Shown here one piece after another: positions 10,366-61,804 of a stretch of 64,000 nt of DNA. Numbering within the stretch: position 1 is the first letter of the stretch; each line of letters begins with the position of its first letter. The stretch is taken from NCBI GenBank assembly GCA_030950485.1, contig JAUZRK010000001.1, positions 103,998 through 167,997 of the forward strand, given 5' to 3'. Below the pieces are notes generated by a model, which was not told the origin of the DNA, did no database searches, and saw only the letters and a list, made by a program, of their open reading frames with translations. This stretch comes from Candidatus Dojkabacteria bacterium (GTDB lineage: Bacteria; Patescibacteriota; Dojkabacteria; J137). The position numbers and the translations under genes are program-made.

Positions 10366-10758
10366 ATGAAATTAAAAAAAATTGATTCAATAGCAATTTG
10401 GTAAGAAAACTGGAGAGAGCTTGCTGATTGGTATAAAGACATTTTTAGCCTAGAAGAAAACATGACTTTAGATCTTGCTGATGATACTGGTACAAATTTA
10501 ATTATTGGATATGGGAGCGTATTATTCTGGATTGGCTATCATGACCAAATTAAAGGCAAAAGCAAAGATCCGTTAAGAGTGATGCCTCCATTTGAAATAG
10601 ATGATGTTTTTGAAACTGAGAAAGAGCTTAAAGAAAAGGGAGTTCAGATTATCGCAAATGCTCAGTTATCTCCTACTAAAGATTTCTATTATTTAACTAT
10701 TCAAGATTTAGATGATAATACTATTAACTTATATAGCTTTAACTTAAAAAATGACTAA
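10366..10758 (+). pseudogene. VOC/glyoxalase-family protein with an in-frame TAA at 10402-10404 (paralog of 56708-57109)
   Basis: ATG 10366: MKLKKIDSIAIW*ENWRELADWYKDIFSLEENMTLD.. aligns with the paralog ..ILFWSENPDELAKSYTDVLELE..; WIGYHDQIKGKSKDPLRVM vs WIGHHDSIKGVTKDPLRRM. Confidence 0.7.
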
Positions 10759-11944
10759 TAATTTAGAGTTATTAAAACTAGAAGTTAACAAACTTGATGA
10801 GCCGATTGAAAAAATCAAGAATCGAATTACAGGAGCAGATGTCTCTAGCTTGATCGAGAAAGAGTTTCTTTCCGAATACAAGCGTTTAATCAATGTAATC
10901 ATTGAGTTCGAAAAACCTACTGGAGAAAAGATAGAGAAAATTCTAAGCTTAGTCAAAAGCATTCAAAATCTTGCTAAAATTGATGTAAGTGAGTTTAAAA
11001 AAAGTGCAAAGGATATTCGAAGTTATATAACTAAAGCGCTTGATGATGTAGCAGCAGGAAACTACAGTATTTGGGCTCCGACTTATAATAAGCTTTTCTT
11101 CTATTCAGAAGTTGAGGCGTGGAAACTTGAAATCAAAACCATTAGAAAATTTGTAGAAAACAATACCGATATCAATAAGTCCTTTGAGATACTTGATGTT
11201 GGAACGGGAACTGGCTTCCCCTCTTTATTACTTTCCAGACTTTATCCAAACTCTCAGGTTAATGCTTTTGATAATTCAGATAAGATGCTTGAAATGGCTC
11301 AGGAGTTTGAAAAAGATGAAATACTTGATTCTAAAGAATTGAGTTTAACAAAGTTGATTCAAGAATATTTAGATCTTAATTACAAAGACTCTAAAAAACC
11401 AAAAAAAAAAAATTTTGTTCATTCACCAATTGTAACCTTAGATAATGAATCCGTCGACATAGGCGTCATGGCAACGGCTATACCTAGTTATACACCTTTT
11501 ACTAAACAGTTAGTTGAAAGTATTTACAGCTCACTTAAACCTGGATCGAGCGCCATGATAAATTTTTCATACATGAGCCTTCCTAGATTTATACTTCTTT
11601 GGAGAGATTATGGATTTACAAAAGCTAGAGAAGAATATAGAAAAAATGCTATTACAGATATTATTTTAGAACCGACAGAAGGAGGAAAGAGTGTTTTTAG
11701 TTTTAAAATTAGTTTTAAAAAATCAATTTGTGAAAAAATTCTTACAGAAACTGGATTTAAAATTAAAAAGAAACATTCTGTTTTTCCATTGTTATATCTA
11801 ATTCTTTCTCTTGGGAAGAAATCTATGCGACAAGATGACAAAAGAATTAGAGCGCCTTATATGTATTTTGAGTTTCCTAAAAATAGACTTCAAAAAGTAT
11901 TGTTTGGAACTTTAACTAAAATTGATTCGTTTCTGTCTAGATGA
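10751..11944 (+). CDS. class I SAM-dependent methyltransferase
   Basis: motif I ILDVGTGTGFPSLLLS. Confidence 0.6.
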   Translation: MTNNLELLKLEVNKLDEPIEKIKNRITGADVSSLIEKEFLSEYKRLINVIIEFEKPTGEKIEKILSLVKSIQNLAKIDVSEFKKSAKDIRSYITKALDDVAAGNYSIWAPTYNKLFFYSEVEAWKLEIKTIRKFVENNTDINKSFEILDVGTGTGFPSLLLSRLYPNSQVNAFDNSDKMLEMAQEFEKDEILDSKELSLTKLIQEYLDLNYKDSKKPKKKNFVHSPIVTLDNESVDIGVMATAIPSYTPFTKQLVESIYSSLKPGSSAMINFSYMSLPRFILLWRDYGFTKAREEYRKNAITDIILEPTEGGKSVFSFKISFKKSICEKILTETGFKIKKKHSVFPLLYLILSLGKKSMRQDDKRIRAPYMYFEFPKNRLQKVLFGTLTKIDSFLSR

Positions 11945-11994
11945 GCTTTATTTACTGCGTATGAGTTACATTATGAGGTAGAAAAACCTAACAT

Positions 11995-12912
11995 TTAAAT
12001 ACTCCCTGGATTCAAAATTACAAACCCAACTAAAATCACAACAATAAAAAATGATTTATGAAGCAAAGTTCCCTTATCAATCCGCTCCGAAATAAGCCTA
12101 GGAAGAAACGTAGTAAGCAAAATACCCGCAATAAACATAAACACTGGATGAGTACCGTTTATTAACCACGCGATACTTAGAGGAGCAGCTAGAGCCGCTG
12201 CGTGAAAAGTTAGCCACGCTACTAAATTTACTACTTCATTAAAAATATTTATACCGATTAGATTTCTATCTGAACTAGAAGAGAAACTAAAAACCTTTTC
12301 TCTAGTTTCTCTAGATATAAACAAAACTCCTAAAGCAAATATCAAATAGCCTATATATTCCCAAAAAGTTGTCTTCCAAAGATCTTCTTCAAGAGCAACA
12401 TATTTAAAAGCTGTTGTATGTGCAGCAGCTAAGAAAGTAGCAAAAAGCATTAGTAGCACTCCTTTAATTGGAGCCCTGAAAGATCTTTCTCTAAAATCTA
12501 TAGCAAAAGATAGAGTTCCAATAAGAATAATTATTCCACCAAAAATCTGACGCGGGCTTAAAGTCTCACCTAAGAATATATAGGCTAAGAAAAATGAATA
12601 TATTGGTAAACTTTGAGTCATTACAATAAGTATTGAAGTTTCTCCATAGCTTAAAGACTTAAAGTAAGGGATTAATTGAAAGATAGAAATCATTCCAAAC
12701 AATATCAGTAGAATTGCGTTTTTAAATTCCACATCAAATGGATCTGCAAAAAATAATAAAAAGGGTAGTCCGAGAGTTGCGGATAAACCCGAAATAACAA
12801 CCAAAGAATTTAATCCCAGTTCTTTATTAAACTTAGTTACTAAAATTTTGTCTAAGTAGGCAACTATCGTCCAGCAAAACGGTGCGAGTAGAGCGTAAAA
12901 TAACCAGGTCAT
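11995..12912 (-). CDS. EamA/DMT-superfamily membrane transporter
   Basis: about 10 predicted TM helices in a two-half duplicated arrangement. Confidence 0.5.
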   Translation of the reverse strand: MTWLFYALLAPFCWTIVAYLDKILVTKFNKELGLNSLVVISGLSATLGLPFLLFFADPFDVEFKNAILLILFGMISIFQLIPYFKSLSYGETSILIVMTQSLPIYSFFLAYIFLGETLSPRQIFGGIIILIGTLSFAIDFRERSFRAPIKGVLLMLFATFLAAAHTTAFKYVALEEDLWKTTFWEYIGYLIFALGVLFISRETREKVFSFSSSSDRNLIGINIFNEVVNLVAWLTFHAAALAAPLSIAWLINGTHPVFMFIAGILLTTFLPRLISERIDKGTLLHKSFFIVVILVGFVILNPGSI

Positions 12913-13840: not shown

Positions 13841-13865
13841 AACTTATTAATGGGAAGTGATTAAG

Positions 13866-15593
13866 CTAGTGCTTACTCGCCTCCCACAATCTTTGATAAA
13901 CTTCATTATTCTTAATCAGCTCATCGTGATGTCCAGTACCAATAATCTCCCCTTTATCCATTACAACAATCCTATCAAAAAATGGTCCAGAGGAAATACG
14001 ATGAGTAATTGCAATCATCGCTGTGCTATGAAGTTCAGATAATGATTTGTAAATATTCTTCTCCGTAACTGTATCTAAACTTGCAGTAGCTTCATCTAAA
14101 ATTAGAATCTCCGGCTTAGTAACCAGAGCTCTAGCAATACAAATTCTTTGTGTTTCACCACCGGAGAGTTGTTTCCCTTTACTTCCTATAAGCTGATGGA
14201 TTCCGTCTTCGTACATTGAAATAAAATTCATTGCATCAGAGAGCTCCAACGCATCAACAACTTCTTTATCTGAAAGATCAATGTCACTAACTAATTGCAG
14301 ATTATCCTTAATGCTCCTACTTAATAGCTCATTTGCTTGAGGTACTACTTTTATATTCCCAAGTAATGAATCATTCTTAATATCTAATACATTTAAATCA
14401 TTTATATTTATCACTCCATCGTCTGGAAGATATAATTTCATTAAAAGCTTTGTTAGGGTAGATTTACCAGACCCAGAAGCTCCAACTATAGCGAGTTTCT
14501 CATTCTTATATATGTCTAGATTTATATTATTAAGTATTTTAGTACCTTCTAAATATGAAAAGTTAATTTTATTAAAGTTAACTTTTGTCCATTAACTGGG
14601 AAAATCTTTATCTCCTTCAGGAATCTTCCTCCCTATTTTAAAGATAGAAGATATTCTTTGTAATCCAGTTACGTTCTCTACTAAGTTTTCATAATCAGTC
14701 CAAACATTTGATGCTCTTGAGGTAATCTTTGTATAGTAAGCATATAATGTTACAGCAACATCAATATTCATATTCCCCTCAATAGCCATATATGCAACAA
14801 AAGCAAGTACTATAACTTCTGAAAGATCCAGCATTAAACTTTGAGATGCAGATGTAATTCTCTCAAACCTCCTTAATACTCTAGTACTATCAATGACTTT
14901 TTCATAAGCACTATCTAGATTTTTAAGTAACTTTGAAGTGATATTTAAAAACCTTACAGTTTTAATTTTTGAAGTAAACTCAAAAAGACTAGAATAGTTA
15001 TTTTCTTCCTCTTTTTGTAGTTCTAAATTAAGTTCTTGGTATTTTCTTGCATTTCTATTTACTGATAGAAAAAAGAAGATTAATATTATTATCGACCAAA
15101 TCCCAACTCTAACATCGAATAGCATTAATAAAATTATTGAGAAAAATAATTCTGCTACTCTTTGAAAAGTTGCAGTAAACATAATTTTCAAAATCATCCT
15201 AACTGCTTTAGATCCCAAGGATATTCTTTCTAGATAGCCTCCCTGAGCTTCATTTTCATGAAAGTCATAATCTAAAGTAAATAAATACTGTAGTGCAAGA
15301 ATTCTAGATCTATTTCTAATATATTCTGAAAGTACTTTTGTTTTATAAGCAACTATATTTCTTATTACTGTGACCAATACTAAGCTAATAGCTGTCAAAG
15401 CTATCATCTGGTAAATATTATCAAAATTCTCATTTGCAAAACTTCCAACAATCTTACCGTATAAAAAAGGTGGGATCATTGCAATTAAAGACACTACTAT
15501 AGTAACGCCAAAGTAAAACAATAATTTCCTTTTATATCCTTCTGTAAAAAAGGACATGTCTTTTAAAACATTTTTAATAGGGTAGTGCTGCAT
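13866..15593 (-). pseudogene. ABC exporter (TMD-NBD fusion, MsbA-like) interrupted by an in-frame TAA at 14592-14594
   Basis: TMD ORF (14592-15593) and NBD ORF (13866-14441) are in one frame. The 150 nt between them read WTKVNFNKINFSYLEGTKILNNINLDIYKNEKLAIVGASGSGKSTLTKLL (Walker A). LSGGETQRICIARAL signature and DEATASLD Walker B lie downstream. Confidence 0.8.
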
Positions 15594-15603
15594 TTATTTT
15601 TAA

Positions 15604-16095: not shown

Positions 16096-16117
16096 TATCT
16101 AACTTTAATTTAATATT

Positions 16118-17194
16118 CTATAAATATTCATCCATTCCCCTTTTCTTTAACTCATCTAAGATTTTCTTAATATTTCCCACCCTATCTTTAGTTGTAACTA
16201 AAAGAGCATCTTCAGTATCAACAATAACAATATCCTTAAGCCCTAAAGTTGCAATCAACTTCTTTTTCTTTCCCTTTATGAGAACATCTTTAGAATCAAT
16301 ATTAATAATATCTCCATCTAAATAATTCCCATCATCAGCGGAAAAGAACTCAGAAATACTTCCCCAAGCTCCAATATCTTTCCATTTAAACGGAGTCAAA
16401 ATAACATAACCTTCCTTCATGGAATGACTAATAACTTCTCCTGTCATTCCTGGCTCCATTTCTGAATAAACTTTATCTGTTAACTCATCTTCATTCTCCA
16501 ATCCAAATGTAGCCTCAATCTTCATTAAATCTTCATACCAATTAGGTTTATATTTCTTATAATCATTTAATAGCAAGCTTGGATACCAGCACGTGTGGTT
16601 ACAGTGTGTAGAAACTCTATATTTTTCTACAAGTTCTTTAGTTTGCTTATAATCTCCGAGCCTATTTATAAATCTATTTACTTTAAAAACCTCAATATTA
16701 TTTTCATTCATAATCGAATCGCCGAGTTCCATATAATCACTTCCCATATCCGGATAAATCGCTTTCTGACCAGCAGTTTTAAATTTCTTATCTCTTCTTA
16801 CAAGTTTTTCTGCAAGAGCTATCATATCTAAAAATCTTTCTTCAGGTACCCTAAAATCATCAGATTGAACAAGCATAAATGGTTCGTCGTCTGTAAGATG
16901 CATCAATTTCAGAAAAGCAAAACCTTCTCCTGGACCTCTATTTTTCTGATAATCAGGTTCATAAATAATATTTTCCTTTGGGATCTCGTTAGCTTGTTCA
17001 TCAATAAAGTTTTTATATCTTTTTTTAGTTGATATAAAAATATCAGCTGGTGAATAAGCTTTAAGTAAAGTTTTAATTTGATATTGGAATAATGATTCGT
17101 TACCTATTATTTTCTAAAACTGCTTTGGAGCTGAGACTCTACTGTAAGGCCAGAGTTTGGTTCCTTGTCCTTCCGCTACTATTAATAATTTCAT
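16118..17194 (-). pseudogene. mannose-1-phosphate guanylyltransferase-like sugar nucleotidyltransferase with an in-frame TAG at 17114-17116
   Basis: Upstream of ORF 16118-16906, the same frame reads MKLLIVAEGQGTKLWPYSRVSAPKQF*KIIGNESLFQYQIKTLLKAY.. (GxGTRLWP nucleotidyl-transferase motif). The C-terminus has the ManC-like KDIGAWGS. Confidence 0.75.
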
Positions 17195-18913: not shown

Positions 18914-20206
18914 GTGAACGACAAAAATAATAGTGAATTAAAAGTAATAGGAATCTCTGGAACTAGAGGTAAAACTATAGTCGCCCATATACTTTATGAT
19001 CTTCTATACTCTTCTGGTATAAGAGTTTCTTTATTATCAACAAACGGGATAGTTATAAATGGAGTTAGTCAAAATGATGCAGCAAATTCTTACAATATTA
19101 ATAAGAAAACATTAAAGAACTTTTTCAGAGATTCAAATAAAGAAGAATGTCAGTATGCAATAGTTGAAATTTCTTCACAAAAAATTAAAGATGGAACATT
19201 TAATGGAGTTGAACTTTCTCATGCAATACTTACAAATATCCATGAAGATTCGCTAGAGATTCATGGAACACTAAATGAATATATCCATACAAAAATCGAA
19301 TTTGTAAAACTTATTAAAGATGGAGGTGCATTAATAGTTGACTCAAGTGATAAAAATTCAAAGAGTATAATAAGAGAAAATAAAGATAAGATTGAAAATA
19401 ATATCTATGTAATTAATGCAAATAGAAGCATCATTGCTAGAGAAGAGCACTTTATAGATGGTACAAGATTCTATATTGACGAGCTCGGAGAGGTTATTAC
19501 TAGGCTTTCTGGTGACTTTAACATCGGCAATATTATTCTTGCAGTAATGTTAGCGAGATTTTTAACAAATCCAAAAACTTTAATACCTAGTCTTAGAAAA
19601 GCAGAGCCGATTTTAGGTAGGTTACACTTGTATAGAAAAACACCAGCTAATATTTTTGTAGATTATGCAAAGAAACCTGGAACACTTAAGGCATCTCTTG
19701 AGCATCTAACCAAAGTAAAAAGTCCAAAATCACGAATAATTAGTGTGTTCGGAGCTTCAGGGGACAAAGATAAACTAGGAAGAGAATCTGGAAATGTTTT
19801 AAAAGACTTATCGGATTATGTAATATTAACCTCCCAAGATCCTAATTTTGAAGATGTGTCAAAAATAAATTCAGAAATACATACCTCTTCTGGTGATTAT
19901 GGTAGTGTCTTAATAGAGAGAATTGGATCGGAACAAGAGTACGAACTAATTAAATATGATAATTTGGCCAATAAAATTGAAAGAGTATATTTAACAGGAG
20001 ACGTTCCGTTTATTGCTTTTGACGAAAATGCATATACAAGTAGGCTAAATGCAATAGACTTAGCGTTAAAAATATCTAGACCTGGAGATATTATTTATAT
20101 AACAGGAAAAGGTCACGAAAAGTCTTCAATTTATAACAATATTGAATATGAGTGGTCTGATTATGAGGCTATTAATCTTTTATTAAGCCAATATGGATAC
20201 CAATAA
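18914..20206 (+). CDS. Mur ligase family protein (MurE/MurF-like)
   Basis: GISGTRGKT P-loop of Mur ligases; C-terminal ligase domain. Confidence 0.65.
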   Translation: MNDKNNSELKVIGISGTRGKTIVAHILYDLLYSSGIRVSLLSTNGIVINGVSQNDAANSYNINKKTLKNFFRDSNKEECQYAIVEISSQKIKDGTFNGVELSHAILTNIHEDSLEIHGTLNEYIHTKIEFVKLIKDGGALIVDSSDKNSKSIIRENKDKIENNIYVINANRSIIAREEHFIDGTRFYIDELGEVITRLSGDFNIGNIILAVMLARFLTNPKTLIPSLRKAEPILGRLHLYRKTPANIFVDYAKKPGTLKASLEHLTKVKSPKSRIISVFGASGDKDKLGRESGNVLKDLSDYVILTSQDPNFEDVSKINSEIHTSSGDYGSVLIERIGSEQEYELIKYDNLANKIERVYLTGDVPFIAFDENAYTSRLNAIDLALKISRPGDIIYITGKGHEKSSIYNNIEYEWSDYEAINLLLSQYGYQ

Positions 20207-23774: not shown

Positions 23775-24350
23775 CTATGAAGCTTGATCCTCAGCTACCA
23801 TTTTAAAAATCACAGGTTTAAAGTCTGCTTTAATCTGGTACATTTGATTACCAAGTGCTTGTGAAATTTTATCTGAGTCTTCTGATCTCGCTTTCTCAAG
23901 CTCCCTTGCAATATCATATAAGAAATAAAGCCCAAGGAAATCTGGGATTTTCGGATCTTGCTCTAGACGTTTTCTTTCGTCTTCAATTATTTTATCTAAT
24001 TCAATATTTTCATCCCGGTTAACATTTTCTATCGCATTTGCAATTCTTTTAAAGCTATCCTGATATGCATTTATTTCATATGGGAATAATCTAGGATCTC
24101 TATTCTCTATAAATATTGAAATTCTATTAACTCGCCAATCATATCCCTGATCATGTAGATATTCTTCTCCTTCATTGTCAGATATGATGTTATTTGTACC
24201 TCTTTTAGCCTGCCTCCAGTTACTGTAAATATTTATTAATAAATTACGAAGAGGAAGTGAATTCGGATTAATAGCAGGATCCCCATCAACTCCACCAATA
24301 ATTTGAACTATACTTCTAACTGTTGTGGCTGATTTTAATTCTTTAATCAC
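23775..24350 (-). CDS. hypothetical protein (reading frame stays open upstream to about 24590 without an ATG; may be longer or disrupted)
   Basis: ORF from the track; the upstream extension translates cleanly. Confidence 0.35.
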   Translation of the reverse strand: MIKELKSATTVRSIVQIIGGVDGDPAINPNSLPLRNLLINIYSNWRQAKRGTNNIISDNEGEEYLHDQGYDWRVNRISIFIENRDPRLFPYEINAYQDSFKRIANAIENVNRDENIELDKIIEDERKRLEQDPKIPDFLGLYFLYDIARELEKARSEDSDKISQALGNQMYQIKADFKPVIFKMVAEDQAS

Positions 24351-24971
24351 ATCGCCTAGGCTCTCTATCTGTTCACTTGTAAATCCACTGTCTATAATTA
24401 CCTTTGCAATCTCAGACCACTGCTTATTTCGATTACTCCAATCTTCTCTAATAGCTATAACATAATTTCTTATAAGTACGGGGTTATGAATTAATGCGTC
24501 ATTAATCTCAGCTATTAGTCCATCAATGTCATCTTCCAGTATTTTTTTCTGTCCAGGCTCGAAATTAGATAATTTAGCTCTCTACACTTTCATTACTTTG
24601 ACAATTTTACCCACTATAGTCTCAGCCTCTGTTGGTTTTCATCATCACCAGTACCTATTCCTGCTATTAGTCCTAAGACATATGCAGGGACTTTACCTTG
24701 ACGAGATTCCTTCTCTCCAGAGCTTGGATCTCTAATGTCAATTAACCCCAACTTATAGTTTTTAACATTATCACGGAACCACTCATCATGAGCTTCGTCC
24801 TCAATTCTATTAAATAAATCCTTCTCTTGTGTTTCTATGTTAATTCCACTAACTATTGCTTCTGCTCCCATACCGAATTATAGTACTAAATCTTCATTTA
24901 TAGAAATCGTTTTCTATAGATTCAGGTTATACTCTAAGTGATAATCGGCTATAAACTTTTATAACTCATTA

Positions 24972-25677
24972 ATGGAACTACACTATATTCAAGCAGCAAT
25001 ACTTTTAGAACTAGGCCAGATAAAAGGCCTAACTTTTAGTGGATTCAAAATACCGACTGAGCTTAATATAGAAGCAGATAAATTTAACTACCATCTTAAA
25101 ACGCTAGTAAAACTAAAACTAGTAAATAAAAAAAGAAGGAGAGTACTCATTAAGTTTTGAAGGTAAGAAGATTGTAAGTAATCTAGATTTTATAAATAAA
25201 CAAAAAGAGGAAACACCTAAAATAAGTATTATGGCTAGGATATTCAGAGAGAAAAAAGGTATTAAGCAAATTTTAGTTAGCCAACGACTTAAACATCCTT
25301 ACTTAAACGCACTCGGTTTAGTTACTGGAAAAGTCAAAGTTGGAGAAAAATTTGAAGACGAGATGATTCGAGAATGTATTGAAGAAACGGGGCTTGTTCC
25401 TACTAAGTTTGAAATGGTAGGAGTAGCTAGATGGATTGATTATGATTCGAAGAAGACATTGCTACACGATGCTACTTTTATAATTTTCGATGTTTATGAA
25501 ACTGATGGAGTATTAATAGAGCAGAGTGATGAATCTAAAAATTTCTGGGTAGATTATTCAGAATTAAAAAATATGGACAATTTATTGCCTACTTTAAAAG
25601 AGATGGCTAAGGGGAAGGAGCTCCAGAGTAGAACAATGGTTTTTGAGGAAAGAGTAGCTGTTTTGGATAATTTTTAG
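24972..25677 (+). pseudogene. winged-helix + Nudix hydrolase fusion, split by a +1 frameshift in an A7 run (25128-25134)
   Basis: ORF1 ends ..LVNKKRRRVLIKF*. Dropping one A gives LVNKKEGEYSLSFEGKKIVSNLDFINKQKEETPKISIMARIF.., which joins ORF 25231-25677. Canonical Nudix box GKVKVGEKFEDEMIRECIEETGL. Confidence 0.65.
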
Positions 25678-25869: not shown

Positions 25870-26325
25870 CTAAATCGACTCAGTCTTTACAAGCTTCATA
25901 TCATCATCAAAAGTATATTTAGCCTCATAGAAGTCTGGGGAGCTAAGAATTATTGGAGCATACACTTTATCTGCTTGAGGTAAAGCTATTTCGTCTAACT
26001 TAACGATTGATATCCATTGAAGCTTATGACCTTCTACGTCTTTTGTTGTCTCTCCTTTGAAATCCTCTATAAGGTAAATGAATAAATGCCATTGAATATC
26101 TTTTGATACTTCAGTTACTAACCCTTTTAATTTAGTATCAGCTATCTCTAGTCCCGTAGTTAAACAGTTTCTTCGTACATTTTCGAAAGTTGATTCACTA
26201 TCTTTTACTAGATCACCCAGAGGAATATAGATTTCTCCATAGTGTAAATGAGGCTTTTCAACTAATAAAATCTCATTTTTATTATTTCGAATAAATATTA
26301 CAGTTTCCGGTCTTATCTCTCTCAT
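25870..26325 (-). CDS. Nudix-fold protein with degenerate Nudix box
   Basis: VIFIRNNKNEILLVEK.. and ENVRRNCLTTGLEI resemble the Nudix fold but lack the EE pair. Confidence 0.4.
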   Translation of the reverse strand: MREIRPETVIFIRNNKNEILLVEKPHLHYGEIYIPLGDLVKDSESTFENVRRNCLTTGLEIADTKLKGLVTEVSKDIQWHLFIYLIEDFKGETTKDVEGHKLQWISIVKLDEIALPQADKVYAPIILSSPDFYEAKYTFDDDMKLVKTESI

Positions 26326-29971: not shown

Positions 29972-30021
29972 GTTTTTTCTGCTATAGATGGATTATCCCC
30001 GGAAACGCATACTCCTCCAGT

Positions 30022-35570: not shown

Positions 35571-35582
35571 AGTAGTAGTTTA

Positions 35583-42952: not shown

Positions 42953-42959
42953 AGATCTG

Positions 42960-43687: not shown

Positions 43688-43763
43688 TCTTTTAGAGTAA
43701 TTAGGTTAATTAGTGCAATTAGAATAATTTTTCAATTTATATTTTTTACTTTTACATTTTTAG

Positions 43764-48930: not shown

Positions 48931-49962
48931 TTGAAAATGACTGAAAAATTAATAAAAAAAATATTAAAAAAATATGGATATGATGTTGTAAAAATATATC
49001 CAGAGCAATCAGGGTATCGTAATAAATCTTATGCGGTTGATGTGATGCATTTGTATGATTCTGTAAGGGCAAAAAATATTTTGCCCCTACAGAGAAAACG
49101 AAATTTGATCCTTTATAAAAATGAGCAAGGAATTATTAAAAAAATACAAAACGCAAACGCAGTTTCAAATTTCCTCGCAGAACAAGGCATTCCATCAAGA
49201 AAATCTCTTGGGAAAATAATTAGGTTGCATGATGAGAAAATAGAAAGATTCGCATGTTTGTACAACTATCTTCCAGGAGAAACCATTTCATGGGAAGCTT
49301 ACAATAAAGAACATATTAAACTATTAGGGAAGGCAATGAGCGATATGCATTTTTATTTAAAGGATTATTCTAAAAAGGATAAGTTGGAAAGTATTGATGA
49401 AATCATTAAAAACCAGGCGAATAAAATGATTCAATATTTTAAAAAAGAGGGTGTTAGAAATGCGATGGTTAGGAAATTGGGATTGATATGTAATATAAAT
49501 TTTATAAACAAATTCGTAGGGGCCGAAAATCTTCGGCCCCTACAAAACATATATTCAGATCAATCTATTCCCCTCCACATGGACCTCGTCCGTAGCAACG
49601 TTCTATTTGATTTAGATAAAAATAAAGACATATTTATTTCAGGAATCATAGATTTCGAAAAAGTAGCAAAGGGAAATCGAATATTTGATATCGCGAGAAC
49701 CTTGGCGTTTCTTCTTGTAGATTGTAAATATAAAGATCCAGTTAAAATTAGGAAATACTTTTTAATAAGTGGATATAAAAAAAGAGAGCTAGAAGATTTA
49801 CCAGATTTAACTCATTTAAACTATTTAATTTACTATTTTTTAACATACGATTTTTATAAATTCTTAAGACATAATCCTTATGAATCATTAAACTCGAATG
49901 AGCATTTTATTCGTACGAAAAACTTTTTACTAAGTAAAAAAATCCTGATAAGCTGTAGTTAA
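48931..49962 (+). CDS. APH/choline-kinase-like phosphotransferase
   Basis: Brenner motif HMDLVRSNVLFD and IIDFEK; carries two in-frame palindromic insertions. Confidence 0.6.
   Translation: MKMTEKLIKKILKKYGYDVVKIYPEQSGYRNKSYAVDVMHLYDSVRAKNILPLQRKRNLILYKNEQGIIKKIQNANAVSNFLAEQGIPSRKSLGKIIRLHDEKIERFACLYNYLPGETISWEAYNKEHIKLLGKAMSDMHFYLKDYSKKDKLESIDEIIKNQANKMIQYFKKEGVRNAMVRKLGLICNINFINKFVGAENLRPLQNIYSDQSIPLHMDLVRSNVLFDLDKNKDIFISGIIDFEKVAKGNRIFDIARTLAFLLVDCKYKDPVKIRKYFLISGYKKRELEDLPDLTHLNYLIYYFLTYDFYKFLRHNPYESLNSNEHFIRTKNFLLSKKILISCS
49061..49092. repeat. palindrome gtaagggcaaaaaatattttgcccctac embedded in-frame in the kinase gene (SVRAKNILPLQR)
   Basis: family A element, one arm mismatch. Confidence 0.7.
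49515..49546. repeat. palindrome gtaggggccgaaaatcttcggcccctac embedded in-frame in the kinase gene (VGAENLRPLQN)
   Basis: family A variant, perfect 12-bp arms. Confidence 0.7.
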
Positions 49963-51177: not shown

Positions 51178-52182
51178 TTGAAAGTAGATAACAAAGTAAC
51201 AGCAAAATTAAATGAACAAGAAAAACAGGAGCTCTATAAAAACGCTAGGGCTAAAGCTTGGTACGATGGGATTTGGCAAACTGTAGGAAAGTGTGTTTTC
51301 TGCGATCTTCGAGATAAATATATTATTCATGAGGAACATGGAATTGTTTTAACTGTAAATATCTACCCGTATATTGACGGTCAAATGCTAGCTGTTCCTA
51401 GAAATCATATTAAATCCCCGAAGGAATTAACTGAAAGACAATGGGAGACAATGAGAAAATTTAGCTATATTGCTAAGAAATTAATAAGAAAGACTCATGG
51501 TCATAAAGGTATGTGGAGCCTACTTAGAGAGGGCGGCATTAATGCTCAGATGAGTGTTTCTGATCATTTACATATGCAATTTATACCCTTCGATAACTCA
51601 GACCTTGCGACATGGAACTACCGTGAGTTAAAGCATACGCCGCTTGAGAATGCTGGACTTTATAAAGAGAACTTTAAGGTTATTCAAAAGAATGCTATTA
51701 AGTTCGATGAGAAATATAGCTCAGGGCAGCTATTAAATTTAATCACGGATTGTATTTTCAAAAATGAAAAAGGTGAAGCGCTTCTAATAAAAAGATGTGA
51801 AGATCATAAAATAGAAGGTTATGATTATTGCTTCCCGGGAGGTCATCTTGATCATGTAGATCAAGGAGTTTTTGGATCACTTTTCGATGAAATGAAAGAA
51901 GAGGTAAATTATTCGATAAAAGAGGAGAGTGTTAAGTTACTCGATTCGAGACTTTCTAAAATCACTTATCTAAATGATTCAAAATATTTAGGAGTCGAGA
52001 TGAAGAATTCTGAAAACGTTTTATGGAATATATACTACTACGATAAAGTAGTTAATTCATCAGAGTTTAAAGCAGGCGATGATGCCGACAGTTTGTATTG
52101 GATAAAAGAAGACGAGGTCGATAAATTCAAAGGTATATCTAAGGAGACTAAAGAAATTTTACATAAGTTTTTTTCACTATGA
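51178..52182 (+). CDS. HIT-superfamily (GalT-like HxHxQ branch) and Nudix-like fusion protein
   Basis: N-terminal CVFCD zinc knuckle and DHLHMQFIP; C-terminal FPGGHLDHVDQGVFGSLFDEMKEEVN Nudix-like box. Confidence 0.5.
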   Translation: MKVDNKVTAKLNEQEKQELYKNARAKAWYDGIWQTVGKCVFCDLRDKYIIHEEHGIVLTVNIYPYIDGQMLAVPRNHIKSPKELTERQWETMRKFSYIAKKLIRKTHGHKGMWSLLREGGINAQMSVSDHLHMQFIPFDNSDLATWNYRELKHTPLENAGLYKENFKVIQKNAIKFDEKYSSGQLLNLITDCIFKNEKGEALLIKRCEDHKIEGYDYCFPGGHLDHVDQGVFGSLFDEMKEEVNYSIKEESVKLLDSRLSKITYLNDSKYLGVEMKNSENVLWNIYYYDKVVNSSEFKAGDDADSLYWIKEDEVDKFKGISKETKEILHKFFSL

Positions 52183-53138
52183 AATTCTTCGACTGGAATG
52201 AATACGCATTTAAAAGTAAGAGTGATATCAAATCATTAAAACCATTGGTGTTTTTAGCCGCTCCGAGGAAATTAAGTGAACAATATGTAGTAAATTTATT
52301 CAAGAGTTATGCTACGAGTTCCAATGTACTTATAGGTATAGCTAAAGAGGACTTTATTAAAGGTTTTGAAGACCAAGAGCAATTTCGTACTTTGAAGCTT
52401 ACTGATATAGAAAATTTTGTCGATAAGGTTCGGAAGTCTAAGGCTAAAGATCGACTGCATTTTATTGAATACTTCCAAGATGATCTAATCCATATTTTAG
52501 AGAAGATACCTTTTAAAAAAGTACTGTTTGTTAACGGGTCATGGAGTAGAGTCTTCCATACAAGGTCTGAATTTTATACTTTGGTAAAAAATAAAATAGA
52601 TTATGAACTAGTCTCTGCGTTTAGTTCGGAAGAAGAGGCGAAAGAGTATTTTAAAAGTATAAAGTCAAAAGTACAAAAAGATACAAAGAAAATTAAAATT
52701 GGACATATATTTAAAGATGATAACGAGGCGTTTGAACTTGTAGATAACATAGCTAAATTCAGTTTTGACAATTCTTTTCAGACCGGAGCAGTCTTAACTA
52801 AGAATAAGAAGTTACTTGCTTATAGTTGGAACAGGGTCGTGCCGTATGAAACGTACGCTTTGTTAAACGGTTATCAAAGAGAAATTCATTTAAGTCCGCC
52901 TAACGATACTAATCATTACGATACTAATCACGCGGAGGTTGAAATGTTAATTAAGGCGAATAAAGAAAATATTGATTTAGCTGGAACGACTCTTTATATA
53001 AATTTATTACCTTGTCCTAGTTGCGCAAGAATGATTTGCAATACTGAAATTTCTGAGATTAAATATAAGATCGATCATAGTGAGGGTTATGCGTTTGATT
53101 TGCTCAAAAAAGCTGGGAAGGAGGTGGAGAGAGTTTAG
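52179..53138 (+). CDS. unknown N-terminal domain fused to a CMP/dCMP-type zinc-dependent cytidine deaminase domain
   Basis: HAEVEML .. PCPSCARMI (H[AC]E..PCxxC) in the C-terminal 140 aa; overlaps the upstream gene by 4 nt. Confidence 0.55.
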   Translation: MKFFDWNEYAFKSKSDIKSLKPLVFLAAPRKLSEQYVVNLFKSYATSSNVLIGIAKEDFIKGFEDQEQFRTLKLTDIENFVDKVRKSKAKDRLHFIEYFQDDLIHILEKIPFKKVLFVNGSWSRVFHTRSEFYTLVKNKIDYELVSAFSSEEEAKEYFKSIKSKVQKDTKKIKIGHIFKDDNEAFELVDNIAKFSFDNSFQTGAVLTKNKKLLAYSWNRVVPYETYALLNGYQREIHLSPPNDTNHYDTNHAEVEMLIKANKENIDLAGTTLYINLLPCPSCARMICNTEISEIKYKIDHSEGYAFDLLKKAGKEVERV

Positions 53139-53469
53139 AGTTATGGGTTTTGGGTTTATAGTGTACTAAAATTTTCGTACATTCTTTAAAAATTTAATCT
53201 GTATTATTCACCTCATAGGGGGATAGAAAACCTAAAGATCTGTATTAATCCGTTTAATCAGTTAAATCTGTGTTCTATTTTCAATGGTCAAATTGAACAC
53301 TGATAAAACTGATCAGTACTGATTCTATTACAATTTGAACAATTTACTTTTGACTTTATATTTTTAACTTTTTACTTTATTTATAGTTAAAGGGATCATT
53401 TAAATGTTTAGTTATAAGCCAACCGGCATACGGGGTTTGATATAGTAAACTAAACAATTCAGCTCTTAA

Positions 53470-53640: not shown

Positions 53641-53719
53641 TTTTTCTCACAACTTTTATTTTAGAATAATTAGGATAATTTGCTTTTGACTTTATACTTT
53701 TAACTTTTTACTTTGCACT

Positions 53720-55175: not shown

Positions 55176-56615
55176 CTACACTTTTATAATAAGCTTATTA
55201 TAAATATCAATATGCCCCTGGAGCATTTTTCTTAGAGTAAATTTATTCTCAAAGCTATCTCTACAAACGCTCCTATCAACTTGATTAATTTTCTCCATCA
55301 CTTCAACTAACTCATCGACAACCCTAGACTCACCATAATAGAAATCTCTCACCTTCTTCATCTTACTCTCATAATAACTCTTTCTCTTTTCCCGGTCAGA
55401 ATCATTAATAACAAAACCATTTTTCCCATTTTCTATCAGCTCTTTTGTAGCCCCATTATCTAAACCTATAACCGGAGTCCCACATGATAAGGCCTCTATA
55501 GTAACCATTCCAAACGGCTCCTTAAATATAGAAGGTACTAACAACGCCTTAGCATTCCCTAAAAATTTCTGCTTAGCTTTGTCGCCTGAAACGTATCCAA
55601 CGTATTCAACTGTATCATTTAGTTCAGGCGCAATTACAGAATTCCAATATGAATCATTCGACTCATCTGAATAATGCTTTCCTGCAATCTTTAGAGTTAC
55701 GGGTTTCGAGTTTCGGGTTGCGAGTTCCTCATTATATTTTTTTACTGCAGCTATTGCGTAGTGGACCCCTTTTGGTTCAATTATTCTCCCGAGATAAGCA
55801 AAATATTCTGTATCATTTTGGCCAGCAGGAGCAGGACTTGGCTCACCAGCTGGAGATGGGTTGTACCCTGGTCCTAAATATTTTGGCTTAAACCTTTTTT
55901 CATCAATTCCATGATAAACATTCCCAACCCAATTCGTATCATCCGGCATATCTTCTCTTTGAGATAGAGACATTGAGATAAAATTTCTATCTTTATATTT
56001 CGGTAAAATAGTTCGATATTTCGTTAGAAAAGAGTAGGGATCATGATGCGTAAATACAACTGGCTTATTACAAAGCCCGCTCATCTCAAGTGCGATCTGT
56101 TCTTCCAACATGTAAACATGAACAATATCAAACATATCATCATTAGCCATTTCGTAGGCTTTGGCTATTATTTCAGATTGAAAATGTCTAGAGAGAGTAG
56201 TGAACAGTAAGGGATGTTTTTTAAGGAGTTCTTTTAGACCGTAACCCCTAGTTTCCAGTTCTTCTTTCAGTAGGGTTTGGTCTGCGGTGATGTTTTTTAC
56301 GGTAGGGGCAAAATATCTTTTACCTTTACTCTTTTTTGTTGGATCAAAAAATCTTTTGCCCTTACTGTTATCTCGACCAACAACCCCAGGCGAAAACAAC
56401 GTAACCTCAGCTCCTGCCTCGGCAAGACCATTTGCAAGATCAATAGCAAGATCTCCCGGAGAAAATATATTATCAGACATCAATTCATCCGACATAAAAA
56501 TATGCGGACAAACGAATGCAATTCGTATTGGAAAATTAGGGGCTGTCATCTGCTCTCGTAGGGGCAAAATATTTTTTGCCCCTACGGATTCGATTACATT
56601 ATTTTTCTTCCTCAT
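55176..56615 (-). CDS. GT4-family glycosyltransferase with several in-frame repeat insertions
   Basis: EPFGMVTIEALSCGTPVIGLDNG near the C-terminus; family A palindromes at 56293-56368 and 56557-56586; family C repeat at 55694-55726. Confidence 0.6.
   Translation of the reverse strand: MRKKNNVIESVGAKNILPLREQMTAPNFPIRIAFVCPHIFMSDELMSDNIFSPGDLAIDLANGLAEAGAEVTLFSPGVVGRDNSKGKRFFDPTKKSKGKRYFAPTVKNITADQTLLKEELETRGYGLKELLKKHPLLFTTLSRHFQSEIIAKAYEMANDDMFDIVHVYMLEEQIALEMSGLCNKPVVFTHHDPYSFLTKYRTILPKYKDRNFISMSLSQREDMPDDTNWVGNVYHGIDEKRFKPKYLGPGYNPSPAGEPSPAPAGQNDTEYFAYLGRIIEPKGVHYAIAAVKKYNEELATRNSKPVTLKIAGKHYSDESNDSYWNSVIAPELNDTVEYVGYVSGDKAKQKFLGNAKALLVPSIFKEPFGMVTIEALSCGTPVIGLDNGATKELIENGKNGFVINDSDREKRKSYYESKMKKVRDFYYGESRVVDELVEVMEKINQVDRSVCRDSFENKFTLRKMLQGHIDIYNKLIIKV
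56557..56586. repeat. palindrome cgtaggggcaaaatattttttgcccctacgg in-frame in the GT4 gene (ESVGAKNILPLRE)
   Basis: family A element; degenerate copies at 56293-56330 and 56343-56368. Confidence 0.75.
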
Positions 56616-56707: not shown

Positions 56708-57109
56708 TTATAACTTACCCATAAATTGCCAGCAATTTCCTTCAGGATCTTTCCAAGCACAAACATAGACTTGGTTCTCGACAGTAGCAAATGGAGTAAG
56801 TATAGGTTCTTGAATAATTTTACATCCAGTATCTCTAACTTTCTCATACCACTTTTGAACTTCATCTGTATTTAAATTTATCATTCGTCTAAGCGGGTCT
56901 TTAGTCACGCCTTTTATAGAATCATGATGGCCTATCCAAAGAATATTCGTGTCGCTCAGTTTTAAATCATGGCCATAATCTTTTTCTAAACCATCTTTCG
57001 CTGGGATGTCAGTTTTAACTAAATATTCTAGTTCTAAAACATCAGTGTAAGATTTAGCAAGTTCGTCTGGATTCTCGCTCCAGAAAAGAATGTATTTTGA
57101 TTGAAACAT
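56708..57109 (-). CDS. VOC/glyoxalase-family protein (intact paralog of the 10366-10758 pseudogene)
   Basis: 133 aa; WIGHHDSIKGVTKDPLRRM. Confidence 0.5.
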   Translation of the reverse strand: MFQSKYILFWSENPDELAKSYTDVLELEYLVKTDIPAKDGLEKDYGHDLKLSDTNILWIGHHDSIKGVTKDPLRRMINLNTDEVQKWYEKVRDTGCKIIQEPILTPFATVENQVYVCAWKDPEGNCWQFMGKL

Positions 57110-57129
57110 AATTTATTAGCGTAATTAAT

Positions 57130-58611
57130 TTAATCTAACACAATCTCCTCATCAATCTCCGCATTAGGATCTCGATCAACTCGATCAAAGTTATTAAATA
57201 AAACTCCCAGAGACTCTGCTTTATCTTTATTCTCTCTAAGATAATCAAATAGACTTCCCATTTTATTTACCCCGTTTCCTGTTTCTCGACCCAACTCGAT
57301 ACCCGCAACCCGTAACTCACCTCCCGCTACTCCTAACTTAATATTCGCAGCTACTCCAATCATCGCAGCATTATCTCCAGTCAGCTTAGAAGAGTAGGGA
57401 TACTTTAATTTAACATCATTCTTCTTACATAAACTTCTAAATTCTGATCTTAATCTCTTACTTGCAATAACCCCTCCACCAAGCCAAAGTTCACTTGGAT
57501 TATGCTTCTTTATAGCTCTTTCTAATTTAACTTTTAATTGAGTAATTGCCGAAGCTTCAATCATTACGCATAGATCATTTATTTGATCTCCCGATAAGTT
57601 CTTAGTTTCTTTATTAAGTTGATCTTCAATAGTTATCTCATCTTTTACCAATGAATTAGTTAATTCTTTAAAAGCAGTTTTTAAACCTGAAAAACTAAAG
57701 TTAAAATCTCCAGATCTATACATAGGAATTGGAAGAGAGTAGCTAGTGCCACTTTCTTTATTAGTACCTATAACATTTGTGCTTTTATTATTCTTTTTTA
57801 TTTCAATTTTAAATTTCTTTCTTTGATCATCTGCAAACCTACTAACTGTAGGACCTGCAGGATATCCTAATCCAAGCATACGCCCAGCCTTATCGTAATA
57901 TTCTCCACATGAATCATCTAAAGTAACCCCAATTTTTTCGTAATCTCCAATCCCATTTACTTTAATCATTTCCGTATGCCCCCCAGATATAAGAAAGCCC
58001 AGTACTGCTTTTCCTTCCCTTGAGGGAAGGTCCCTGAAAGGGGGATGGGTGATTTGACCATGTTCTTTATCGTGCTTAATTTTTACCTTAGAATTTCTCT
58101 CAACAAAACCAGACAACAAATGCCCTTCCATATGATTAATAATCATCAAAGGCTTATCAAATTTTTCAGCTAAAGCAATGGCCTTTCTAACTCCAACCTC
58201 TAACGCAATAGCTAATCCAGGACCATAAGTAACAGCAACTAAATCGACTTCACTCATATACTTTCTTAAATCACTTTCTTGTGTTTCCCCCTCTCCTGGG
58301 AGAGGGCTGGGCCTGTCCGAAGCTGCTGCATCGTTGCTGGCGGAGTGAGGGATAGCTCTTTTTAAAGCTTCCACCACTACATTATCAATCCTCTCTGTAT
58401 GAGCTAACTTAGCAAGGCTTGGCACAACACCTCCATATTTTTCGTGGTATTTTTGTTGAGAAGGCATTACGCTAGATAGAACAGTAGTACCTCTAACAAT
58501 TGAACAAGATGTTTCATCACAAGATGTATCAATCGCCAAAGTTGTAATTTCGTTTATAGATTTAGAATTCATTAGGTAATTATACCAAATGAAATTAGAT
58601 CGAACCTGCAA
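57130..58611 (-). CDS. tsaD: tRNA N6-threonylcarbamoyladenosine synthase TsaD (Kae1/Gcp), extended by insertions
   Basis: LAIDTSCDETSCSIV and INHMEGHLL motifs; 493 aa vs about 340 typical; contains a family B palindrome (58287-58307) and a family C repeat (57285-57318). Confidence 0.7.
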   Translation of the reverse strand: MQVRSNFIWYNYLMNSKSINEITTLAIDTSCDETSCSIVRGTTVLSSVMPSQQKYHEKYGGVVPSLAKLAHTERIDNVVVEALKRAIPHSASNDAAASDRPSPLPGEGETQESDLRKYMSEVDLVAVTYGPGLAIALEVGVRKAIALAEKFDKPLMIINHMEGHLLSGFVERNSKVKIKHDKEHGQITHPPFRDLPSREGKAVLGFLISGGHTEMIKVNGIGDYEKIGVTLDDSCGEYYDKAGRMLGLGYPAGPTVSRFADDQRKKFKIEIKKNNKSTNVIGTNKESGTSYSLPIPMYRSGDFNFSFSGLKTAFKELTNSLVKDEITIEDQLNKETKNLSGDQINDLCVMIEASAITQLKVKLERAIKKHNPSELWLGGGVIASKRLRSEFRSLCKKNDVKLKYPYSSKLTGDNAAMIGVAANIKLGVAGGELRVAGIELGRETGNGVNKMGSLFDYLRENKDKAESLGVLFNNFDRVDRDPNAEIDEEIVLD

Positions 58612-58639
58612 CTTTTTTATACAAGTTCCAGTATTTATA

Positions 58640-58929
58640 AGCAGTGTTTTGATTTACTCTAACTATTAGTGAGTCATGTGCAATTGGCTCGAAGTCTGAC
58701 TTTTCTGGCTCACCTGTTATACCATTTACTTTTCGATATGTATCAAGTATCTCAAGAATAGAAGTTTCATTTGGCTGAATCGTTATACCTATTAAGTCTA
58801 TCTGTGAGTCCTTTCAAGCTTCTCTCAGAAGGATATTCGTGTCGACCTGAAGGCAATGCACGTGCATAATCCTCTAAACATGTAACCTCATCAATCGTAT
58901 CCTCTCTTTCAAAAATTTTTTTCAGACAT
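58640..58929 (-). pseudogene. decayed small gene (at least two frameshifts, one in an A7 run at 58916-58922)
   Basis: reading across frames gives MSEK|KIFEREDTIDEVTCLEDYARALPSGRHEYPSERSLKGLTDRLNRYNDSAK|PNETSILEILDTYRKVNGITGEPEKSDFEPIAHDSLIVRVNQNTAYKYW.. Confidence 0.4.
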
Positions 58930-59644: not shown

Positions 59645-59646
59645 AA

Positions 59647-59847: not shown

Positions 59848-59862
59848 ATTTATATTTTTAAA

Positions 59863-60438
59863 CTATAAATTTATTATATCATTTATCAGTTCAGGATAAT
59901 CATATCCATGGTCGAAAGCTTCAGTTTCTATTAATTCAATGTTTTTAAATTCACCAAATTGCTCATTTATAAATTCAAAACTTCCTAATGGATCATTTGA
60001 ATTCTGAATGATAGTTATTTCTAATTTTGTTTTTCCAAGAACCTGCTTATATTTTTCTAACCTCTCATTTTTAGAATCTTCCTCCCAATTCTGAATCGGC
60101 AATCCCATAAAAACAACTTTATCAATCTGTTCTTCATAATCCTCAATCAGATTCAAAGAGAGTAGCGTCCCAATCGACTTAGCAACTATACTGTATTTCT
60201 CCCTCTCTTGGGAGAGGTCCGGGGTGAGGGTTTTCGGCACGATACCAAATTTATCACTCATCTCCTTCTCAATAACCCCCAACTCATAACTCCCTACCCA
60301 AGACTCATAACTCACATCATCCCATTTCCTCCATCTATGTTTAATTACATTATGTCCAGATTCCTCCAAAGCATCAGTAACTGATTTCCATTCTGCTTCG
60401 TTGTATATACCTTGTCCTGGTAGATAGAGTATGTTCAT
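59863..60438 (-). CDS. alpha/beta-hydrolase-like serine esterase with an in-frame family B palindrome insertion
   Basis: nucleophile elbow IVAKSIG; palindrome ccctctcttgggagagg (60199-60218) encodes DLSQERE. Confidence 0.45.
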   Translation of the reverse strand: MNILYLPGQGIYNEAEWKSVTDALEESGHNVIKHRWRKWDDVSYESWVGSYELGVIEKEMSDKFGIVPKTLTPDLSQEREKYSIVAKSIGTLLSLNLIEDYEEQIDKVVFMGLPIQNWEEDSKNERLEKYKQVLGKTKLEITIIQNSNDPLGSFEFINEQFGEFKNIELIETEAFDHGYDYPELINDIINL

Positions 60439-60468
60439 ATTATTTTAATTTATTCCAATATTCATTTT

Positions 60469-60966
60469 TTATATATTTCTGATCTTTGTACTTTGAATCA
60501 GAGATTTTTTTGCAATTAGCTTTGCGTCTTCTAAATACCTTTCTGTATAAACTCCTCTTATAACCGAGAGCATCATTAGCTTTTCCAAACTAATAACCAA
60601 AAAATCTTTTTCATCTAAAGCATTATCTTTTAATTCATCGTATCCAAAAAGCATAATACTATCCCAAAGTTCAAATTCATAAATTAAAATTCCATGATCT
60701 CCAAAAAGATCTGAGAATTGCGATTTTTCTTTAAAACCAGATTTATGTGGCTCTTCTAAAATATCTGCCTCATCAATCAATTTTTTAGAAAGTTCTAAAT
60801 GATCCCTTCTTATAAGAATCATGTCTATATCTTTATCCGATTCTCTAAGCTCATGATACATCATTGCAACTCCTGAAACTAAAAGTGGCTTATCCTTAAA
60901 TTTAAAATCTAATTTTGAAAGATTTATAAACTTCAGTGCTTTTTGTTTAAGATTTTTCTCATTCAT
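60469..60966 (-). CDS. minimal nucleotidyltransferase (pol-beta-like NTase fold)
   Basis: VSGVAMMYHELRESDKDIDMIL (GS..DxD). Confidence 0.45.
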   Translation of the reverse strand: MNEKNLKQKALKFINLSKLDFKFKDKPLLVSGVAMMYHELRESDKDIDMILIRRDHLELSKKLIDEADILEEPHKSGFKEKSQFSDLFGDHGILIYEFELWDSIMLFGYDELKDNALDEKDFLVISLEKLMMLSVIRGVYTERYLEDAKLIAKKSLIQSTKIRNI

Positions 60967-61804
60967 TTTGCTTCATTATACTTCTAACAGCCTTCTCTTG
61001 CATTACCGCGTGACTAGCTCCAAATATTATAAATACCTTATCGTATTCCTGAAGCTTAGCTTGTATATATTCTAAAATATACGTATCCCTGAAAGAACTC
61101 AATTTATTCCCTATCTCATTAACAATGGTCCATTTCTGTCCTCTCGGAATAGGATCTAAAATATCTCTATAATCATTTGTATCATTATAAATACCAGTTC
61201 CTAAATATTTTTTGTGTAAATCTATAAAATTTCTCAAATCATACTTAGCTCACTCATTTCCTAAACAAAATCTCTCTATAGCTGCTTCCAATCGTACTAG
61301 TCTTTCGTCAGAACTTTTATATTTCCAAGTAGGTAAATAATGAATGCAAAAAAAGAAGAATATTTCGTCATTACTAAATCCATTTTCAAATAAATACTTG
61401 ATCTCATCTTGATGATTTATATCAGCAGAGTATGTATCAGCCTTGTTCTCATTTGCTTTTATTAAACTAAATATTGGCTCGCCAAATTCTTCAATAATTG
61501 CAGAAATATTGTTTCTATTTCTATAGATTTTATTCTTTAACTCTTCAGCTAATAGCTCATTAACAAAAGTATGCCCCTCGATAAGTAAGACTTCTGGATT
61601 AAACTCTTTTATAGCACTTTCAATTATATTAAAAATTTCATCTTCAGGATCCCTTGAATGGTAAGTTCCAAAGTAATAAAGCTCTTTATTATTATTTTTA
61701 ATTTCGTAAATATATGGGGTTTTATGAGCTAGAGAAGAGTATTCTTCTGGCGTCATTAACAATTCTTTTAGTTGATTTGAAGATAACATATTAAATTCTA
61801 CCAC
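60959..61804 (-). pseudogene. TraB/GumN-family protein with an in-frame TGA at 61250-61252
   Basis: N-part ORF ends ..ERFCLGNE*. The same frame continues AKYDLRNFIDLHKKYLG.. into ORF 60959-61237, which has VFIIFGASHAV. The N-part has YYFGTYHS and LLIEGHT. Confidence 0.65.

Follow-up and report, generated by a model that had tools for sequence, protein, structure and literature searches.

The DNA analysed here, hereafter the window, is a 64-kb stretch from one metagenome-assembled genome (MAG) of Candidatus Dojkabacteria, a lineage of the candidate phyla radiation (CPR/Patescibacteria), with a GC content of about 32%. It carries some 69 genes, which cover about 91% of its length when pseudogenes are counted as genic. 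Ten of these genes are disrupted with good support and one more doubtfully so (11/69, 16%), by a total of 12-14 lesions comprising seven nonsense codons and five to seven frameshifts. The stops and shifts were located by three-frame translations and codon views, and the conceptual proteins obtained by bridging the lesions were compared with Pfam. A previous inspection of the letters, here called the sequence-only reading, had flagged ten broken genes. Nine of them are interrupted as it described and match one family across the lesion, whereas what is seen at the tenth, a remnant at 58.6-58.9 kb, is a pattern of reading frames.

In-frame stops had been assigned by that reading to VOC, ABC, ManC-like, Nudix, comM and TraB/GumN genes, and the three-frame translations and codon views located every one of them at the same position. 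The VOC/glyoxalase-like gene (10366-10758, plus strand) has a TAA in frame at 10402-10404 (codon 13), which lies opposite a Ser of an intact paralogue at 56708-57109 (38% identity, E = 5e-17). PF00903 was found on this paralogue, and no direct Pfam match was obtained for the gene at 10366-10758 itself. The ABC exporter, with transmembrane and ATPase domains (13866-15593, minus strand), is interrupted by a TAA at 14592-14594, in the linker ahead of the first strand and Walker A motif of the ATPase domain. Once repaired, it shows the Pfam domains ABC_membrane (residues 24-288) and ABC_tran (354-504), and its homologues are single open reading frames (ORFs) of 579-593 amino acids that align through the stop.

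The ManC-like nucleotidyltransferase (16118-17194, minus strand) carries a TAG at 17114-17116 (codon 27, 'PKQF*'). In the repaired protein an NTP_transferase domain (residues 4-130) crosses the stop, and a ManC beta-helix follows at 294-349. The residue after PKQF in this family is usually Leu, and TTG to TAG is therefore the simplest path to the stop. In the Nudix hydrolase gene (39879-40529, minus strand) a TGA stands at 40110-40112, and the frame continues beyond it for 76 more codons up to the TAA at 39879-39881; the Pfam NUDIX domain of the repaired protein (residues 33-160, profile 5-128/134) crosses the stop. The TraB/GumN-like gene (60959-61804, minus strand) has a TGA at 61250-61252. 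Its homologues, of 286-318 amino acids, cover 95-98% of the repaired protein, and in our reading of the MAFFT alignment, which has a two-residue gap just ahead, the TGA falls at a Trp that is invariant among them. Since the stop sits at this position, the one-step change from TGG to TGA is the simplest explanation. The match to PF01963 is borderline (26.7 bits against a cut-off of 26.8).

A further case, the eleventh, was absent from the sequence-only reading. It is the pseudogene of a TrmB-like regulator (approximately 8641-9403, minus strand) with a TAA in frame at 8978-8980. By BLASTP, its residues 9-257 align with residues 8-264 of an intact paralogue at 9544-10344, straight through the stop, and the Pfam TrmB helix-turn-helix (HTH) domain lies on residues 6-74. 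The frame has no stop of its own and continues into the adjoining aldo/keto reductase (AKR) gene: between the C-terminus 'FIWERSST' and the AKR no stop codon occurs (8590-8640, minus strand). The probable start of the AKR is a TTG in the same frame ('MKLNGQDISAMG'). A TAATAA is found in another frame, 20 nucleotides (nt) downstream, which suggests that a further small indel erased the original stop of the regulator.

Frameshifts in three genes were confirmed by the translations, the codon views and the Pfam comparison of the repaired proteins. The AKR (7701-8640, minus strand) has a 1-nt frameshift at the A4 run at 8174-8177 (coding strand GGAAAATC). An A5 in its place gives back 'GKIKSITVSNF', and PF00248 (Aldo_ket_red) then matches over profile positions 2-288/291 (E = 1e-52). 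The winged-HTH-Nudix (wHTH-Nudix) gene (24972-25677, plus strand) is shifted in the A7 run at 25128-25134, where A6 restores the frame. The shift falls at about residue 54, within the wHTH, and is crossed by the Pfam families HTH_45 (26-76) and DUF7347 (9-69), with the NUDIX domain following at 85-203 of the repaired protein. In the gene of glycoside hydrolase family 1 (GH1; 37234-38570, plus strand), a 1-nt frameshift at the A4 run at 37746-37749 leads to a TAG at 37753-37755 that ends the frame prematurely, shortly before the catalytic NEP motif is reached. Replacing A4 with A5 restores 'VKRVVGEYSDVNYWITINEP' and gives a PF00232 (Glyco_hydro_1) match with E = 3e-77.

The most heavily damaged gene is comM, which encodes a Mg-chelatase-like AAA+ protein (43764-45281, minus strand) and whose role in better-studied bacteria is in the recombination that accompanies natural transformation. 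Here it bears three lesions: a 1-nt loss near 44632-44648, outside any homopolymer; the TGA at 44584-44586; and a 2-nt loss at 44042-44055, where (AG)4 is found and (AG)5 is expected. At least three frameshifts had been claimed for this gene, which was not borne out, as two frameshifts and the TGA suffice for the repair. The repaired protein matches ChlI (1-121/121), Mg_chelatase (1-206/207, E = 1e-88) and Mg_chelatase_C (2-94/94). Altogether, Pfam domains cross the lesions in AKR, ABC, ManC, both Nudix genes, GH1, ComM and the wHTH domain, and it is thus single-family genes that are interrupted.

The doubtful case is a possible small-gene remnant at 58590-58929 (minus strand), in which two frame changes, one in an A7 run at 58914-58923 and one near 58764-58775, stitch together a product of about 115 amino acids. 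It was recognised by its reading-frame pattern; Pfam gave no family for it, and no single family could be followed across its lesions. Two places with adjacent ORFs on the same strand, 23775-24871 and 29666-30528 (both minus), are candidates for further broken genes, with ORFs of 85 and 191 amino acids that could be joined through one frameshift and one in-frame stop. Pfam gave no family at either place.

The existence of a second MAG of the same population allowed the lesions to be compared between two assemblies. This sister, GCA_030949735.1 (contig JAUZSD010000008.1, 70,790 bp, locus tag Q9M91_), belongs to the same submission series as the MAG of the window (Q9M76_), whose contig measures 179,567 bp. 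Its contig was rebuilt from five loci and then aligned along the entire window. Identity between them is 99.895%, and the 67 columns of the alignment at which they differ correspond to about 25 small indel events (34 gap openings) and 25 substitutions, most of the differences being 1-nt homopolymer indels. None of the 12-14 lesions of the window differs in the sister, so that each is reproduced in a second assembly and the search for intact alleles there found none. The sister annotation carries the same 173-amino-acid GH1 fragment, and the doubtful remnant region at 58590-58929 is also identical in both. Several of the lesion fragments are currently annotated, automatically, as ordinary proteins.

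The differences between the two assemblies have a character of their own. Wherever a coding indel separates them, the window has the longer ORF, apart from two ambiguous cases at the 3' ends of genes (35567 and 51102). Broken in the sister only are recA, sufS, rsmI, the end of murB, ybaK, an M23-like gene and others. Noisy patches of the sister, opposite 27084-27434, 35567-35719 and 62777-63089, combine G<->A differences with small indels; in many positions the sister has G where the window has A, and the YbaK-like and SufS ORFs are destroyed in it. The sister is thus the noisier of the two assemblies, and the deposited GCA_030949735.1 contains many artefactual frameshifts. From these differences, both assemblies are of long-read type.

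Three isolated substitutions also separate the two MAGs, at 8049 (synonymous), 18978 (Thr/Ile) and 52145 (Val/Glu). The second affects the P-loop 'GTRGKT[I/T]V' of a Mur ligase family gene (18914-20206), where the window has ATA (Ile) and the sister ACA (Thr). The Thr of the sister is the more canonical residue in Mur ligase P-loops. Either this is a true single-nucleotide polymorphism (SNP), or the window has a rare erroneous substitution here.

These observations bear directly on the possibility that the lesions are artefacts of consensus or assembly. According to this explanation, error-prone long reads, overlapping read sets or a common pipeline would have left systematic or low-coverage consensus errors that escaped polishing in both MAGs, and the genes would be intact in the organism. 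The sister provides a clear precedent, through its long-read noise, its 34 gap openings and the G<->A-rich patches that break recA, sufS, rsmI and ybaK. In addition, the AKR, GH1 and wHTH-Nudix shifts are all 1-nt changes in A-runs, the two MAGs may not be independent of each other, and the isolated substitutions mostly set G or C in the sister against A or T in the window, as could arise from a difference in polishing instead of true SNPs. Nevertheless, not one lesion is repaired in the sister, nor is there any difference at which the sister is clearly intact and the window broken (35567 and 51102 being ambiguous).

The composition of the lesions argues in the same direction. An artefact of homopolymers should consist of 1-nt indels, enriched at the longest runs, but seven of the lesions are substitutions and the shifts fall at A4, A7, A4, a non-homopolymer site and an (AG)n repeat; both comM frameshifts lie outside homopolymers. 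By contrast, 119 homopolymers of at least 6 nt (one A12, three of 8 nt and 115 others) are in frame inside the long ORFs of the window. Together with the longer ORFs at indel differences, these runs indicate that the window was assembled accurately at the places where errors are to be expected. Of all random substitutions in the intact genes, 5.5% would produce a stop. At that rate, for seven nonsense errors to arise, the window would have to contain about 127 wrong substitutions. When the error process is taken from the 8-25 substitutions and 25-34 indels that separate window and sister, it predicts 1.7-3.9% nonsense, whereas 7 of 12-14 are observed (P = 3e-10 to 4e-7; 3e-10 to 9e-8 for at least 7 out of 12). 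The lesions thus misfit the inter-MAG error process, with a share of stop substitutions that is 25-60 times the predicted one (P<1e-6). A systematic miscall at a methylation motif was also considered and is not supported, as no shared k-mer was found around the in-frame stops.

Artefacts should furthermore vary between assemblies and strike genes at random with respect to function, and neither was found. Under our own division into housekeeping and accessory genes, none of the 14 housekeeping genes carries a lesion (P=0.035 by length, 0.066 by gene count), while the indels seen only in the sister strike five of them. The caution about consensus errors expressed in the sequence-only reading was therefore justified in that the sister is visibly noisy, but the lesions themselves are unlike that noise. 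On balance, an artefactual origin of the lesions is considered unlikely, although it is the most serious of the alternatives.

A different genetic code might also account for in-frame stops. UGA is reassigned in the CPR lineages Gracilibacteria and Absconditabacteria (genetic code 25) and in Mollicutes (code 4). The window resembles these lineages in coming from a CPR bacterium, in having in-frame TGAs, one of them at a conserved Trp, and in the low share of TGA terminators (7%). Among 55 intact genes, the terminator is TAA in 29, TAG in 22 (40%) and TGA in 4 (7%). This stop usage is unusual for a genome of 32% GC, and TGA, a rare terminator, makes up three of the seven in-frame stops. An ATGA overlap with the start of the next gene at 52179-52182 shows that TGA nevertheless functions as a terminator. 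Since all three stop codons end intact genes, and given this overlap, reassignment is excluded, as the sequence-only reading had already concluded. Code 4 or 25 in particular was rejected, as four genes end in TGA and just three in-frame TGAs, one of them at a Trp, occur in the disrupted genes. The window differs from the users of these codes in that TGA terminates genes, that the disrupted genes contain just three in-frame TGAs against hundreds of sense codons in each gene, and that TAA and TAG stand in frame too.

The second way in which the genes could remain functional is rescue during expression, which had been put forward on the model of Buchnera and Blochmannia. In this explanation the lesions are real, and UGA readthrough and slippage at A-runs yield enough full-length protein. 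Several features are consistent with it. Most genes have single lesions and keep their motifs (Walker A, Walker B and signature in the ABC exporter, NEP in GH1, Walker A and B in ComM); TGA ends 4 of 55 intact genes but accounts for 3 of 7 in-frame stops; the TGA of the TraB-like gene occupies a conserved Trp; and a +1 slip of tRNA-Lys on the A7 run of the wHTH-Nudix gene would restore its frame.

However, the documented cases of transcriptional slippage in bacteria involve A/T runs of about 9 nt or longer (PMC5009743), and the example in Blochmannia is an 11-A tract (PMC3017870). The runs concerned here are A4, A7 and A4, well under that length, and the two comM shifts lie outside homopolymers. 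Three or four of the stops are TAA, the ManC stop is a TAG at codon 27, the Trp alignment holds at one of the three TGA sites, and TGA works as a terminator (ATGA, 52179-52182). Moreover, comM with its three lesions would require three independent rescues. A programmed -1 frameshift at the A_AAA_AAG heptamer of the wHTH-Nudix gene was considered and rejected, as the heptamer promotes -1 and the frame needs +1, the opposite direction. The short runs, this wrong-direction heptamer, the TAA stops and the triple lesion of comM together make functional rescue very improbable, the least credible of the explanations weighed here, and the proposal of poly(A) slippage or readthrough is not supported. 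The likeness to slippage in Buchnera and Blochmannia (PMC3017870; PMC5009743) is confined to A-run frameshifts in otherwise intact genes of an AT-rich small genome, whereas the tracts are of 4-7 nt here and of about 9-11 or more there, and most lesions of the window are stops or non-homopolymer indels. As the defining features of both slippage rescue and codon reassignment were looked for and not found, the window is placed in neither class.

The best-supported reading of the disruptions is gene decay, in agreement with what had been suggested for them. The lesions probably arose by genuine and recent mutation, which inactivated dispensable genes of a Dojkabacteria population, and in the organism they would be fixed, under relaxed selection and in the course of ongoing gene loss. 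In the proposed mechanism, single-base substitutions would create stops, and replication slippage would produce indels of 1-2 nt in short A-runs or the AG repeat. The targets would be accessory or redundant functions: Nudix, VOC and TrmB paralogues, the AKR with its adjacent regulator, the ABC exporter, ManC, GH1, the TraB-like gene and comM. With purifying selection on these functions lifted, the lesions would persist, and truncated, non-functional products would be expected. The lesions cluster in functionally linked neighbours (the TrmB-like gene and the AKR) and also where an intact paralogue of the gene lies close by, as for VOC, TrmB and Nudix. Since most of the genes have one lesion and retain all catalytic motifs, the inactivation appears to be young. 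The triply damaged comM and the TrmB-AKR pair are further along in decay.

Some observations weigh against genuine decay. The contrast between housekeeping and accessory genes is marginal at the P values given above and depends on the classification. The two MAGs may derive from shared reads, in which case common consensus errors would be possible. Three of the five well-placed frameshifts are 1-nt A-run changes, which is the same type as the demonstrable errors of the sister. The region covered is 64 kb and may be unusually accessory and paralogue-rich. Finally, the nearest relatives are too distant (47% identity for the ABC exporter, 65% for valyl-tRNA synthetase, ValRS) to show intact alleles or relaxed selection.

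This distance became apparent in the searches for other relatives. Exact-protein look-ups gave the sister MAG as the sole other source, and the closest other sequences are those of other Dojkabacteria MAGs for ValRS (65% identity) and, for the ABC exporter, a match of 47%, above which the homologue search returned nothing. The contigs that carry the two best ABC matches show no synteny with the window, and one of them bears an archaeal/eukaryotic-type ribosomal protein L37ae. A scan of JGI metagenomes with the neighbouring DUF6879 gene found nothing, and a RecA scan of genome contigs gave unrelated phyla only, among the matches listed.

The lesions might also be real without being fixed. The consensus would then represent a defective clone or the majority allele, raised by a bloom or by a bottleneck during enrichment, with intact alleles persisting at lower frequency. 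That two MAGs of one project have the lesions in common, yet differ at 8049, 18978 and 52145, hints at populations that are close relatives but not identical, and genes with a single lesion imply very recent events. Against this, every lesion is present in both consensus sequences. Minority alleles are invisible in a consensus sequence, and the distinction from inactivation that is already fixed is one of allele frequency alone. Such a polymorphism is regarded as improbable, clearly more so than an artefact.

Gene decay of this kind has its best-known counterparts in host-restricted bacteria such as Mycobacterium leprae, Sodalis glossinidius and Blochmannia/Buchnera (PMC3017870, PMC3164680). 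As in those genomes, the lesions are single nonsense codons or small indels in A/T runs, accessory or redundant functions are the first to be hit, the number of lesions per gene is graded from one to three (comM), and the sequence is AT-rich (32% GC). The window differs from them in belonging to a CPR lineage whose genomes are already small, and in showing neither expansion of insertion sequence (IS) elements nor extensive non-coding decay, its genic share being about 91%. No long repeats were found in the window, and no transposase was found among its ORF translations or Pfam annotations. The other comparison, with the homopolymer artefacts of long reads (Nanopore/PacBio), fits the pattern of the sister exactly and extends to the three 1-nt A-run frameshifts of the window; it fails in that over half of the lesions of the window are stop substitutions, that all lesions are common to both MAGs, and that long homopolymers are in frame and housekeeping genes spared. 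The biology of gene loss observed here is ordinary, although seldom documented in Dojkabacteria or the CPR group.

A bolder extension can be proposed tentatively, with somewhat less than an even chance of being correct: that this Dojkabacteria lineage is in a burst of active inactivation affecting about one sixth of its genes, comM and redundant Nudix, VOC and TrmB paralogues included, while some products might still be made at a low level through +1 slippage or UGA readthrough. If such a burst were taking place, the shrinkage of CPR genomes would be directly observable. Genomes of the CPR are characteristically small and streamlined, but their reduction is usually deduced from absent genes, not from genes caught while being inactivated. 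Should the reads confirm the lesions, they would provide a snapshot of the functions being shed (Nudix, VOC and TrmB paralogues, sugar-nucleotide metabolism, a glycosidase, an exporter and comM) and would also reveal the mutational spectrum of reduction. In practical terms, assembly noise can be told apart from common lesions when another MAG of the population has been deposited.

The remainder of the window is rich in paralogues. Five genes with Nudix domains are present (6290-6754, 24972-25677, 25870-26325, 39879-40529 and 51178-52182), as well as two CYTH genes (38636-39262 and 41059-41619), two four-helix proteins of the type encoded in 23S rRNA intervening sequences (2922-3284 and 43322-43687) and a Gp49/HTH toxin-antitoxin pair at 42623-43271. 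The window therefore resembles an accessory, high-turnover part of the genome, and its local density of pseudogenes may be inflated as a result. No tRNA genes were found in the window, and an Rfam search of its large intergenic gaps at the gathering threshold gave 0 matches.

Two types of repeat were observed alongside the disrupted genes. The first is a palindrome about 36 nt long, TCCGTAGGGGCAAA....TTTGCCCCTACGGA, whose stem is GC-rich; it is present in five to seven copies, all of them within long intact ORFs. The copies lie in ValRS (4946-4981 and 5777-5812), in an APH-like kinase (49058-49093 and 49511-49546) and in a GT4 glycosyltransferase (56302-56329, 56333-56368 and 56553-56588). The palindromic pattern has five matches, against 0 expected by chance, and the element is translated in frame into '(V)GA(K/N)N(I/Y)LPLR'-like peptides. 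In ValRS, its copies occupy variable loops, which the six closest homologues either lack or have in a shorter form. The element resembles the Rickettsia palindromic elements, and it may be more unusual than the pseudogenes.

The second type consists of intergenic arrays of a AAAGTAAAAAGT / ACTTTTTACTTTT motif, for which no Rfam family matches were obtained. They are found at 35569-35729, at 53322-53378 and 53658-53714, and at 43728-43762, 45352-45379 and 52650-52677. One direct-repeat pair brackets a GC-richer segment of about 280 nt within the 580-bp gap upstream of thyA.

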